64,000 bases of DNA from an uncultured archaeon. GTDB taxonomy: Archaea > Aenigmatarchaeota > Aenigmatarchaeia > GW2011-AR5. Numbering within the stretch: position 1 is the first letter of the stretch; each line of letters opens with the position of its first letter. The notes beneath the pieces were generated by a model. The model searched no databases. It saw only the letters and a list, made by a program, of their open reading frames with translations, and was not told where the DNA came from. Both the position numbers and the translations under genes were made by a program. Below are positions 3,977 to 31,724 of this stretch, piece by piece. Location: contig CAYJVT010000001.1 of the NCBI GenBank assembly GCA_964373695.1, positions 2,373 through 66,372 of the forward strand, in the 5' to 3' direction.

Positions 3977-6229
3977 ATGAAGTTCTGCCTCCTGGACGCG
4001 GATTACGGGGTGCGCGCCGGCAAGCCTGTCATCATGCTGATAGGAGTCGACGCAAAGGGCAAGCGCGTCGTCGTTGAGGACTCTTTCCTCCCTTACTTCT
4101 ATGCGACCAAAGCCGTGAAGGCTCCGAATGTCGTGAAGACCGAGAAAGTCGGTATGAAGCTGGGTGGGAAGGAGCGGAGCCTTGTAAAGATATACGTCAA
4201 CCTCCCGCAGAACGTTCAGAAGGTAAGGGATGCCGTGAAGGGGCATGCGGACTGCTACGAATATTCGCTCAACTTCTACAAAAGATACCTTATCGACAGG
4301 GGCTTTTACCCTCTGGACTGGCTCTCCGTGAAAGGCGGCCGTGTAGAGAAATCATCCGGCGGCAGCCCGCCGCTGCGCGTCCTGGCGTTCGACATGGAGG
4401 TTGTCGACAAAAAGATAGTAGTGATTTCGTTCGCGACGCGCGCTTCGAAAGGGGTTATAACATACAAGGACGCGTCAAACATAATTCGTGTGAAGGATGA
4501 AAAAGAAACGATAGAGAAATTCTTCGCCGTGCTGGAAAAGGAGAAGCCGCATATGGTAGTCACGTACAACGGGGACGGATACGACTTCGACATCCTTCGT
4601 CAGAGGATGGAAGAGTTGAAAGTCGTGGGGCCGCGCATCGAATTCGAGAAGCACTCATACATGTCCTCGGCGCGCGTTTCGGGCTTCGTGCACATAGACC
4701 TCTACAATTTCGTCAACAACCTCATCTTCCAGCAGCTCGCGTCCGAGGTCTACACGCTCGCGGAGGTGTCTGAAGAGATATTGGGCAAGACGAAGAATGG
4801 CCTGTCATACGAGAATATCATAGAGTTGTGGAAAAGCGATGCCGGCGCTCTGGCGGAATACTGCCTCAACGACTCCATGCTGACGCTGGAACTGTCGGAA
4901 AGGCTCCTCCCGCAGCTCTTCGAGCTCTGCCGCGTGTCTGGTCAGCTGCCTTTCGACTGCTCCCGCCTGACATATGGCCTCATGGTCGAGTGGTTCCTGA
5001 TGCGCAAGGCCGCCGAGATGAAGATTGTTCATCCGAATCCTCCGCACTGGGATGAGATACAGAAAAGGCGTTTGCGGCGGTTCAGGGGTGGGTATGTGAA
5101 AGAGCCGGTCGGGGGCCTGCATGATGACATAGCGGTGTTCGATTTCCGCTCGCTGTACCCTTCCATAATAGTCACGTTCAACATATCGCCTGAAACCCTT
5201 AACTGCAAATGTTGCTCGTCGAAAGTTCCGGGCCTTGAATATCATTTCTGCAGGAAGCGGAAAGGATTTGTCCCGTCCGTGCTCGAGGAAGTGCTGCAGC
5301 GGCGGCAGGCAATAAAGAAGAGAATGAAAAAAGCGAAGGGGGAGGAGTTCGAGCGACTCAAGGGCGAGCAGGCCGCCCTGAAGCTTGTAGCCAACAGCAC
5401 ATACGGGATATTCGGCAGCCCTTCGGCCAGATGGTACTGCTTTGACTGCGGCCAGGCTGCCGCCGCATATGGCAGGAATTTCATACAGAAGGCCATAGAA
5501 GCGGCCGGAAAGCAGGGCCTGGAGGTCCTGTACGGCGACACGGACTCGCTTTTTGTCAGCTCAGGCCGGATTGCGGCCAAAAAATTCCTCAGGGATATGA
5601 ACAAGTCACTCCCTGGCATAATGGAGCTTGAGCTGCAGGGAATATATGTAAGGGGGCTGTTCGTCCCGCAGAAAATAGGCGGATATACGGCGAAAAAGCG
5701 CTATGCGCTGCTTGACGCCGAAGGCAACATGACTGTGCGCGGGTTGGAGACTGTCAGGAGGGATTGGTGCGATATGGCGAGGAATTTGCAGCGCGAAGTC
5801 CTTCACCTGGTCCTCCAGAAGAGGGAGAAAGATGCCGTGAGGAAGGTAAGGGAGGCCCTGGAAAAGGTGAGGAAGCGCCAGGTCGGCATGCAGGACATAA
5901 TCATGCGCACGCAGATGGGGAAAAGCCTGGAGGAATATAAGGCCACGGGTCCCCATGTCGAAGTCGCGCGCCGCCTCAGGGCAGAAGGCCATGATGTCCG
6001 TGAGGGAATGGTGATAAGCTATATAATCACGAAAGGCCGTGGAAGCATTTCGCAGCGCGCCATGCCTGCGGACAAGGTCGGCATCAGGGATTACGATATA
6101 GAATACTACTCAGAGAACCAGCTCCTGTCGGTGGCGCTCCGCGTGTTGCAGGTTTTCGGATATAAGGAAGAGGATTTTCTTACAGACGGACTGAAAATCT
6201 TTGGAGAACGTCGTTCTCCAAGATCTTGA
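3977..6229 (+). CDS. polB: Family B DNA polymerase with intact 3'-5' exonuclease and polymerase motifs
   Basis: FDME (ExoI), TYNGDGYD (ExoII), YCLND (ExoIII), DFRSLYPSII, KLVANSTYG, YGDTDS. True start is MKFCLLDADY at 3977; the upstream ORF extension overlaps lhr. Confidence 0.95.
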   Translation: MKFCLLDADYGVRAGKPVIMLIGVDAKGKRVVVEDSFLPYFYATKAVKAPNVVKTEKVGMKLGGKERSLVKIYVNLPQNVQKVRDAVKGHADCYEYSLNFYKRYLIDRGFYPLDWLSVKGGRVEKSSGGSPPLRVLAFDMEVVDKKIVVISFATRASKGVITYKDASNIIRVKDEKETIEKFFAVLEKEKPHMVVTYNGDGYDFDILRQRMEELKVVGPRIEFEKHSYMSSARVSGFVHIDLYNFVNNLIFQQLASEVYTLAEVSEEILGKTKNGLSYENIIELWKSDAGALAEYCLNDSMLTLELSERLLPQLFELCRVSGQLPFDCSRLTYGLMVEWFLMRKAAEMKIVHPNPPHWDEIQKRRLRRFRGGYVKEPVGGLHDDIAVFDFRSLYPSIIVTFNISPETLNCKCCSSKVPGLEYHFCRKRKGFVPSVLEEVLQRRQAIKKRMKKAKGEEFERLKGEQAALKLVANSTYGIFGSPSARWYCFDCGQAAAAYGRNFIQKAIEAAGKQGLEVLYGDTDSLFVSSGRIAAKKFLRDMNKSLPGIMELELQGIYVRGLFVPQKIGGYTAKKRYALLDAEGNMTVRGLETVRRDWCDMARNLQREVLHLVLQKREKDAVRKVREALEKVRKRQVGMQDIIMRTQMGKSLEEYKATGPHVEVARRLRAEGHDVREGMVISYIITKGRGSISQRAMPADKVGIRDYDIEYYSENQLLSVALRVLQVFGYKEEDFLTDGLKIFGERRSPRS

Positions 6230-6473
6230 AGGAATTATAGTGCTACAAGGAAAGAAATAGGATATTATTTTCCTTGTGCACTATATGTGAAACCAGAATT
6301 CATGTCCAGATTCTTTTCTGGTTTCACTATATATATATCCCTTCCAAGAAATTCACGAAATGAATGTACAAAAACCTTTTGGGCTTTTGACATTGTTGAA
6401 AAGCCAAAGGCTTTTAACATCTCAAAGAAACTGTGTTTCTTTGCGGACTCGAAGAACTTCGTTCTTTGCAGAC
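6192..6473 (+). other. AT-rich multi-hairpin structured element (candidate ncRNA or palindromic/MITE-like element)
   Basis: Hairpins at 6197-6224, 6236-6285, 6287-6327 (12-bp perfect stem), 6351-6365, 6371-6415, 6419-6448 (9-bp perfect stem) and 6447-6473. A stem from about 6224-6233 pairing with 6339-6349 encloses two hairpins. G-U pairs favour the + strand. Confidence 0.6.
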
Positions 6474-6501
6474 TTTAATACTTGACTATCGTCTTCAATA
6501 T

Positions 6502-7398
6502 ATGGAGAAGGATGAATTCGACAAGTACGTTATTGCAGGGAAGATAGCGGCCCTGGTGAGGGAAGAAAGCAGATCGTACGTGAAGGTGGGGGCGCCGCTC
6601 CTGGAAATAGCAAGGAAAGTTGAAGACTCTATAAGGAAGAACGGGGGCATGCCGGCTTTCCCTGTCAATCTGTCCTTGAACGACGAGGCCGCCCACTACA
6701 CTCCTGTTCCTGTGGATGAAAGAAAGATTTCCGAAGGCGACGTGATAAAAGTCGATATAGGAGTTCACGTCGACGGGTTCATAGGTGATACCGCTTATAC
6801 TGTGTCGTTCGGCGAAAAGCACAAGGCCCTGGTGAAGGCAGCGGAAGACGCGCTGGAAAAGGCCGTTCCGCTGTGCATTCCGGGTAAGGCTGTGGACGAG
6901 ATATCAGGCGTCATAGAGGATACAATAAAGTCCCGCGGCTTCAGGCCAGTAGCGAACCTGACAGGCCACGGCCTCGGGCAATGGGAGGGGCATGCGGAGC
7001 CCACGATACACAACGTCAGAGTCAATTATCCTTACGTCCTGAAGGAGGACGATGTCATAGCTGTCGAGCCCTTTGCAACGGACGGTGCAGGACGCATAAA
7101 AGATTCCGAGCCTTCCGTTATATTCTCCCTTGTCAGAAAGAAGCCCGTGCGCAGCCAGGAAGCGAGGAAGATAATCAGCGATATAGAGGCTTTCAAAGGC
7201 CTGCCTTTCGCGGAAAGGTGGCTCGGCTCATCGTTTGGCACGCGCCTCGCCATGAGGGACCTGAGGCGTTCCGGTATCCTGTATGAATATCCGGTCCTCA
7301 AGGAAGTTTCGAAGGGGATAATCACGCAGGCCGAGCATACCGTGATAGTGAGAAAGACGCCTGTCGTCACCACTGACTTAAAAAGTTTCGCGGACTAA
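6502..7398 (+). CDS. map: Methionine aminopeptidase type II
   Basis: AFPVNLSLNDEAAHY, KVDIGVHVDGFIGDTAYT, LTGH, AVEPF, QAEHT. Start at ATG 6502 (MEKDEF). Confidence 0.95.
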   Translation: MEKDEFDKYVIAGKIAALVREESRSYVKVGAPLLEIARKVEDSIRKNGGMPAFPVNLSLNDEAAHYTPVPVDERKISEGDVIKVDIGVHVDGFIGDTAYTVSFGEKHKALVKAAEDALEKAVPLCIPGKAVDEISGVIEDTIKSRGFRPVANLTGHGLGQWEGHAEPTIHNVRVNYPYVLKEDDVIAVEPFATDGAGRIKDSEPSVIFSLVRKKPVRSQEARKIISDIEAFKGLPFAERWLGSSFGTRLAMRDLRRSGILYEYPVLKEVSKGIITQAEHTVIVRKTPVVTTDLKSFAD

Positions 7399-31660: not shown

Positions 31661-31717
31661 ATGAAAATCCTTGAAAAACAAAGTTTTTCAGGATCTCAAA
31701 GGAGGCACCTCCTTTGA
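31661..31717 (+). CDS. 18-codon uORF / leader peptide MKILEKQSFSGSQRRHLL
   Basis: ATG at 31661. Its TGA (31715-31717) overlaps the TTG start of the epimerase. Confidence 0.35.
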   Translation: MKILEKQSFSGSQRRHLL

Positions 31718-31724
31718 AGATATT
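31662..31724 (+). promoter_or_regulatory. Double-hairpin element homologous to 6192-6233 that sequesters the SD and TTG start of the epimerase
   Basis: Hairpin 31667-31694 (atccttgaaaaac-aaa-gtttttcaggat) and hairpin 31696-31717 (tcaaaggag-gcac-ctcctttga). GGAGG at 31701-31705, TTG at 31714. Confidence 0.65.

Follow-up and report, generated by a model that had tools for sequence, protein, structure and literature searches.

What kind of element fills the AT-rich spacer between polB and map, the genes for a family-B DNA polymerase and a methionine aminopeptidase (MetAP), in the window analysed here, a stretch of 64,000 nt (positions 2,373 to 66,372 of contig CAYJVT010000001.1, assembly GCA_964373695.1)? 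The window belongs to a metagenome-assembled genome (MAG) of a DPANN archaeon of the Aenigmatarchaeota (G000), which comprises 1.02 Mb in 60 contigs and is 91% complete. In the following, plain coordinates are those of the window, C-numbers denote contigs of G000, and G001 and G002 are relatives of the same genus. A first-pass annotation had described a series of hairpins in this spacer, and had proposed either an undescribed structured non-coding RNA (ncRNA) or untranslated-region (UTR) element, or a mobile palindromic element such as those known to enter the ends of coding sequences. The hairpins are real, yet they do not constitute a single RNA element; the spacer is composed of repeats from two dispersed families, set one within another. 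These repeats vary in presence between close relatives. Very probably, the spacer represents selfish palindromic DNA that has been built up stepwise in an originally short spacer, in line with the second of the two proposals: two families are nested at the end of a coding sequence, and their insertions can be ordered.

The folding of the spacer is far stronger than that of shuffled controls. The + strand of 6192-6503 is predicted to fold at -99 kcal/mol as compared with -59 ± 4.5 kcal/mol for dinucleotide shuffles (z -8.9), and the - strand at -108.7 kcal/mol (z -9.2). Single modules also fold equally on both strands with DNA parameters. Since both strands fold equally, the structure is an attribute of palindromic DNA, and the earlier claim that G-U pairs favour the + strand has to be given up, the - strand folding at least as well. 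The layout described in the first-pass annotation largely holds. Exact inverted repeats are present at the positions of its hairpins, namely at 6201-6221 (10-bp arms), 6287-6298 with 6316-6327 (12 bp), 6423-6443 (9 bp plus a triloop) and 6379-6388 with 6399-6408, in addition to the arms of a miniature inverted-repeat transposable element (MITE) described below. The first hairpin encodes the last residues of PolB, and the polB stop (6227-6229, + strand) lies in the next stem. The stem reported to enclose two hairpins also exists (6225-6235 with 6337-6348); it represents a small hairpin whose arms have been separated by an insertion, and the apparent three-way junction arises because the MITE sits in the loop of this hairpin. 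As for the four apices of the form RAC-NNN-GTT, three belong to true triloop hairpins of the repeat family, whereas the fourth (gac-att-gtt, ~6390-6398) falls inside a 10-nt loop.

The first family is a double-hairpin MITE. A BLAST search of G000 with the region identifies 6235-6331 as a dispersed repeat, in which the element proper (6236-6331, without assigned strand) is composed of a 92-bp core (6238-6329, with the ends TAGTGC and CACTA) between two TA dinucleotides. Hairpin 1 spans 6236-6285, and hairpin 2 is formed by the 12-bp arms mentioned above. All copies show the order TA, TAGTG, hairpin 1, TATA, hairpin 2, CACTA, TA; every full copy starts with TAGTG and finishes with CACTA as terminal inverted repeats, and TA flanks every copy. 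There are 24 matches in G000, of which ~20 are more diverged; a copy at C35:6714-6810 is 100% identical and another at C10:22419-22517 is 98% identical, and identical half-copies are found at five contig ends, a pattern typical of assembly-breaking repeats. Both hairpins are preserved in sub-families of the MITE via compensatory differences, and hairpin 2 is also found alone. In the nested pairs at C3:55576-55767 and C13:7125-7316, the host copy has exactly one extra TA as compared with intact copies, and therefore TA is duplicated on insertion. An orthologous empty site was sought for the C10 copy in G001 and G002, where its flanks had no DNA match and only the MITE itself was matched. The family is present in 22 of the 41 genomes searched, G000 included, covering 17 of the 24 other genomes of the same taxonomic family and some from other families of the order. 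Two pattern scans of viral contigs (IMG/VR) gave no match to the MITE.

The second family is made up of triloop hairpin modules. Distinct perfect short hairpins number 497 in G000 (647 when those with a shared centre are not merged), a roughly three-fold excess over a locally shuffled genome, in which 185 were counted without such merging. Purine-rich 5' arms are found in 89 triloop hairpins and pyrimidine-rich ones in 32, with T-rich 3' arms, on both strands. A strand polarity drawn from these arms was dropped as a cue to orientation, since the arms of a perfect palindrome read alike on either strand and the loops and feet alone orient a module. Twenty-six oriented modules have been aligned over 37 columns, with the foot ATCT at the 5' side, an 8-9-bp stem closed by C-G, the triloop, and a bulged C followed by AGA, which together give the 3' foot CAGA. 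The covariance model of this module (R1) detects ~64 distinct modules in G000 at E<=1e-3 and has matches in 27 of 41 related genomes, including at least 85 in G001 and at least 67 in G002. Several families of the order share the 37-nt module, together with its feet, in conserved form. The 18 adjacent module pairs are without exception in the (-,+) orientation, at an offset of 25-27 nt, and the same pairing is evident among the R1 matches in relatives. Therefore, the unit is an inverted doublet of ~55-60 nt, in which the outer foot TCTG is followed by hairpin 1, a palindromic centre like AGATCT, hairpin 2 and the outer foot CAGA. This doublet structure explains the 26-28-nt spacing and the shared junction bases of adjacent modules that had attracted attention to the spacer; the regular spacing is real, at 25-27 nt.

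The modules are nearly all intergenic, only 3 of ~64 being inside long open reading frames (ORFs), and some adjoin stop codons. An initial count of perfect hairpins hinted at enrichment in convergent spacers and at a terminator-like 3'-end placement; this enrichment was gone with R1 modules counted per spacer. Within ~200 nt of contig ends lie 23 of the 64 modules (for example, C6:36-97, C22:90-171, C44:67-154 and C52:3557-3618), and likewise several MITE halves; these repeats are therefore a main reason why this MAG is fragmented. Most doublet copies have diverged, with identities of 77-88%. Elsewhere in the window, a further inverted triloop doublet is located at 31664-31724 between two + strand ORFs (R1 matches at C1:34036-34070 on the - strand and C1:34061-34096 on the + strand). 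In addition, near-identical collinear hairpin arrays (C16:10864-10960 compared with C10:47-149, C28:9922-10024 and C34:6967-7015) differ in flipped triloops (gaa/ttc and aaa/ttt), a pattern expected from inversion across hairpin arms.

How did these units come to lie between polB and map? The spacer is 30 nt long in G002 and 57 nt in another relative, G018, both without hairpins, and 139 nt in G001 and 272 nt in G000. This comparison shows that the ancestral spacer measured 30-57 nt, downstream of a PolB ending in a conserved x-L-x-x-F motif plus 1-5 residues. A ~55-nt inverted triloop doublet then settled just 3' of the polB stop. This unit, doublet 2 (6364-6476, strand not assigned, in two parts at 6364-6393 and 6449-6476), is common to G001, where an orthologous doublet is present; it is paralogous to C7:47660-47721 and has BLAST matches in C7 and C44. 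In the G000 lineage, a second doublet of 55 nt, doublet 1 (6394-6448, likewise without strand; hairpins 6399-6415 and 6423-6443; R1 E 3.9e-8), entered the centre of the first. It folds equally on both strands, and its paralogues at C6:44-93, C44:4523-4572 and C52:3565-3614 are 88% identical. G001 is without doublet 1 at this point; there the shared doublet carries, at another position, a different doublet of exactly 55 nt, which was gained independently inside hairpin 1 of that shared doublet. When one of these nested 55-nt units is deleted from each genome, G000 and G001 are collinear up to a TATA-like box (6475-6482) and the map start. The independent insertions in sister lineages are the strongest evidence that doublets move as units.

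A third doublet subsequently entered the last codons of polB, so that the gene reads into the repeat and stops there, leaving its old end untranslated. Compared with G001, G000 has an insertion of 155 nt at 6193-6347; subtraction of the MITE and one TA leaves ~61 nt, which corresponds to one doublet with the hairpin 6201-6221, the centre AGATCT and a second hairpin. The first module of this doublet 3 (6193-6229, + strand; R1 at C1:8565-8601, E 8.8e-5; DNA fold z -3.6) encodes the PolB tail IFGERRSPRS, and is missing from G001, G002 and other relatives. Its second hairpin (6225-6348, no strand assigned) is the one split by the MITE, and uninterrupted paralogues of it are found at C3:32794-32816 and C7:24572-24594. 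No close paralogue of the whole polB-end doublet was found, only a partial similarity being seen at C7:24546-24595. The insertion point of the MITE is a TA in the loop of the second hairpin, and the 92-bp element entered there after the doublet with duplication of the TA. On the 3' side of the new stop, the untranslated codons K-K-F-T-K-stop (6346-6363, + strand) are collinear with the G001 polB end GGLRKFTK-stop, and are the relic of the ancestral end.

PolB of 11 relatives (L086, L087, L088, L097-L104) ends in G-[LM]-x-[KR]-F plus 1-5 residues, and none has the tail of G000, in which the end RKFTK-stop is replaced by KIFGERRSPRS-stop; the end GLKIFGERRSPRS followed by a stop occurs in G000 alone. 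This tail retains the L-x-x-F spacing in G-L-K-I-F, followed by eight added residues, which suggests that selection might have filtered which insertion survived. In Sulfolobus PolB1, QLTLF is a short clamp-binding motif, and PIP motifs are mostly at extreme termini (PMC3504372). The conserved C-terminal x-L-x-x-F of PolB resembles such a motif and may possibly serve for clamp binding. Gene ends formed by a repeat have been seen twice only in G000: besides polB, the doublet C7:24538-24595 (L141:839-896) provides a 92-residue ORF at C7:24279-24557 (L141:580-858) with its stop and its final five codons (DLQRN). As a separate matter, PolB of G046 (L103) stops early with LLAGGP and loses the conserved terminal motif, and its spacer contains an extra segment of ~105 nt at a point further downstream; a mobile insertion as the cause of this early stop has been ruled out by comparison with G041, which reveals small indels.

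As to the enzymes involved, the MITE would presumably be mobilised in trans by a DDE transposase that duplicates TA and is of the IS630/Tc1-mariner type, and the doublets might be moved as 55-nt units by an enzyme favouring single-stranded or hairpin-loop DNA. The folds are a property of the DNA on both strands, and any effect on the ends of polB mRNA would be a by-product. Several points speak against such a mobile interpretation. No transposase with ends matching the MITE was found, and DDE_3 is absent from the 91% complete assembly of G000. IS630-like elements are present in 10 of 70 genomes of the order, and their ends (TA plus TAGCTAACC) share only TA plus TAG with those of the MITE (TA plus TAGTGC). 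The Y1 transposase is found in 9 of the 41 genomes as compared with 27 for the modules, and is absent from the module-rich G001, G002, G005 and G006. For the doublets, a target duplication could not be established, and their recent movement is shown solely by comparison with relatives. Pairing in the module alignment amounts to 96% with many double changes, a covariation count that is partly circular because the R1 seeds were selected for perfect stems. The hairpins may also have a function for the host, such as termination or protein binding.

Other mobile elements of these genomes have been surveyed as well. In G000, there is no multi-copy repeat of the size of an insertion sequence (IS). 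Two IS630-family elements of ~1.13 kb (L134:893-2022 in G007 and L133:683-1814 in G061) each have a DDE_3 domain, a 355-residue ORF and terminal inverted repeats of ~30 bp starting from the TA plus TAGCTAACC, and they are candidate distant relatives of the parent of the MITE. The only intact IS200-like Y1 gene in G000 (C52:1357-1749, L092:1357-1749; 99 bits) is flanked by hairpins other than the triloop modules. A tie between the modules and this type of gene was rejected as a general explanation, as Y1 is absent from most module-rich genomes, and a relationship of the REP-RAYT type is not supported by the Y1 distribution. A repeat of ~110 nt, with 11 copies in G000 (C5:39270-39405, C9:64-200, C11:25300-25450, C23:12480-12627 and 7 more), ends in a hairpin and then TCATTGACA. 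Its terminal hairpin resembles the hairpin just 3' of the Y1 gene, and the repeat looks like a derivative of the PATE type. Triloop doublets are inserted in copies of this repeat, for example in its hairpin loop (C5 and C9 compared with C11, C12 and C23), and the MITE is also found inside some copies.

Among the other explanations, a single structured ncRNA or polB 3'-UTR element composed of triloop modules is very improbable. It would account for the very strong folding excess and for the pairing maintained by compensatory differences between copies, while the antisense strand folds equally or better and the pieces are independent dispersed repeats in either orientation, absent at the G002 locus and differently built in G001. 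A covariance search of Rfam at permissive E-values yielded no family and only chance-level matches to miRNA or sRNA (best E 0.21, with 22 bits against a gathering score of 100). Given the equal folding of both strands, the dispersed copies, the lack of gene-orientation bias and the variation of the locus in relatives, the RNA proposal of the first-pass annotation is abandoned. The idea that the repeat cluster by polB acts as an origin of replication, in which inverted repeats would surround an unwinding element, hardly deserves credence. The spacer is indeed AT-rich (34-35% GC as compared with ~54% in its flanks), is dense in inverted repeats and adjoins a replication gene; however, the inserted repeats account for the low GC, the same modules lie at >60 genomic sites, and in a relative of the same genus the spacer measures no more than 30 nt. 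The neighbourhood, with an Lhr-type helicase gene upstream of polB and a GATase gene downstream of map (the gene for MetAP), has no Orc1/Cdc6 gene.

It is unlikely, if less so, that the doublets are cis-elements of the host that act on DNA or on both transcripts, as bidirectional stops, insulators, protectors of mRNA 3' ends or BIME-like protein-binding sites, and that have spread under selection, a role which would be compatible with a mobile origin. Such selection would fit the maintenance of the 37-nt module with its feet across several families, when most genomes have no detectable cognate transposase. The bias of the arms on both strands (89 vs 32) and the almost exclusively intergenic location, sometimes abutting stop codons, point in the same direction, yet the modules in tandem gene pairs show no orientation bias (11 sense and 11 antisense) and the spacers occupied (16/480 tandem, 7/164 convergent and 5/176 divergent) reveal no clear preference. 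Moreover, bacterial-type terminator scoring of the polB-map spacer scored no site, the content of the same locus varies among genomes of one genus, and units are nested in one another and in other repeats. A further proposal, which is possible but should be taken as tentative, is that the ~55-nt doublets are an archaeal counterpart of bacterial REPINs, persisting and moving across an order of Aenigmatarchaeota mostly without a RAYT-type gene. If this were true, it would imply either an unrecognised enzyme that moves hairpin DNA in reduced genomes or a dependence of the host on hairpins for a conserved function.

The stepwise build-up of selfish palindromic DNA thus remains the preferred account of the repeat-covered part of the spacer (6193-6476), which is ordinary selfish DNA in kind, represents two undescribed families and is instructive for what it has done to an essential gene. 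A false lead is thereby removed, the hairpins of this spacer not being a new RNA. The locus also shows, as a clean and dated case in a genome of ~1 Mb, how small mobile repeats have rewritten the end of an essential replication gene. A hairpin-doublet family widespread in Aenigmatarchaeota now has a covariance model and a defined unit of 55 nt; this family breaks assemblies and can mislead the annotation of ncRNAs and gene ends in MAGs of DPANN. Concerning the genes on both sides, polB (3977-6229, + strand; from the ORF list, with Pfam DNA_pol_B at 1.8e-61 plus exonuclease domains) is open from 3605 and has its probable start at ~3977, positions relative to starts being approximate as the ORF calls used for context were greedy and over-extend gene starts. 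The map gene (6502-7398, + strand, with ATG at 6502) matches Pfam Peptidase_M24 at 1.1e-32, and its product (family M24) is 88% identical to the orthologue in JACPAH01, a groundwater Candidatus Aenigmatarchaeota MAG. The TATA-like box at 6475-6482 (+ strand), ~20 nt 5' of the map ATG, is conserved between G000 and G001 while the intervening hairpins differ, and is a putative promoter element of map.

With respect to known systems, the Rickettsia palindromic element (RPE) and the palindromic repeats of Methanocaldococcus jannaschii enter protein-coding sequences and are translated within the host protein. The repeat at the polB end is similar in that a palindromic repeat has entered a coding sequence and is translated; it differs in that it swaps C-terminal residues and gives the stop instead of being read through in frame, has no sequence relationship to them, and has been found in two cases only in G000. 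MITEs derived from IS630/Tc1-mariner with TA duplication, and Correia elements (CREE) of Neisseria, share with the present MITE a size of ~100 bp, a non-coding nature, terminal inverted repeats, TA duplication, many dispersed and mutually nested copies, and insertion near or into genes. Unlike them, the MITE described here has two separate long hairpins, each with TATA flanks, of which hairpin 2 also occurs solo, and no parent IS sharing its ends was found here. A prokaryote-wide census has reported high densities of MITEs in other DPANN genomes (PMC11602168), and no paper linking Aenigmatarchaeota with MITEs was found. PATEs, which are palindrome-associated elements derived from IS200/IS605, for example in Haloquadratum (PMC3119063), are comparable to the ~110-nt repeat with its IS200-like terminal hairpin; this repeat is not in the polB-map region, and the triloop modules do not resemble IS200-like ends. 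The closest parallel to the doublets is provided by REP, REPIN and BIME of Proteobacteria, which are mobilised by the Y1 transposase RAYT and have been described in papers dealing with bacteria only (PMC3116915, PMC2817692, PMC3733652). Both are asymmetric hairpin modules of ~26-37 nt in high copy number, mostly intergenic and arranged in mosaic arrays, with inverted doublets acting as the insertion unit. In contrast, the feet are ATCT and CAGA here and GTAG or CGTC there, here the stems usually differ between the two hairpins of a doublet, and no single-copy RAYT gene is flanked by modules, Y1 being missing from most carrier genomes. Finally, the host of the doublets described here is a DPANN archaeon.

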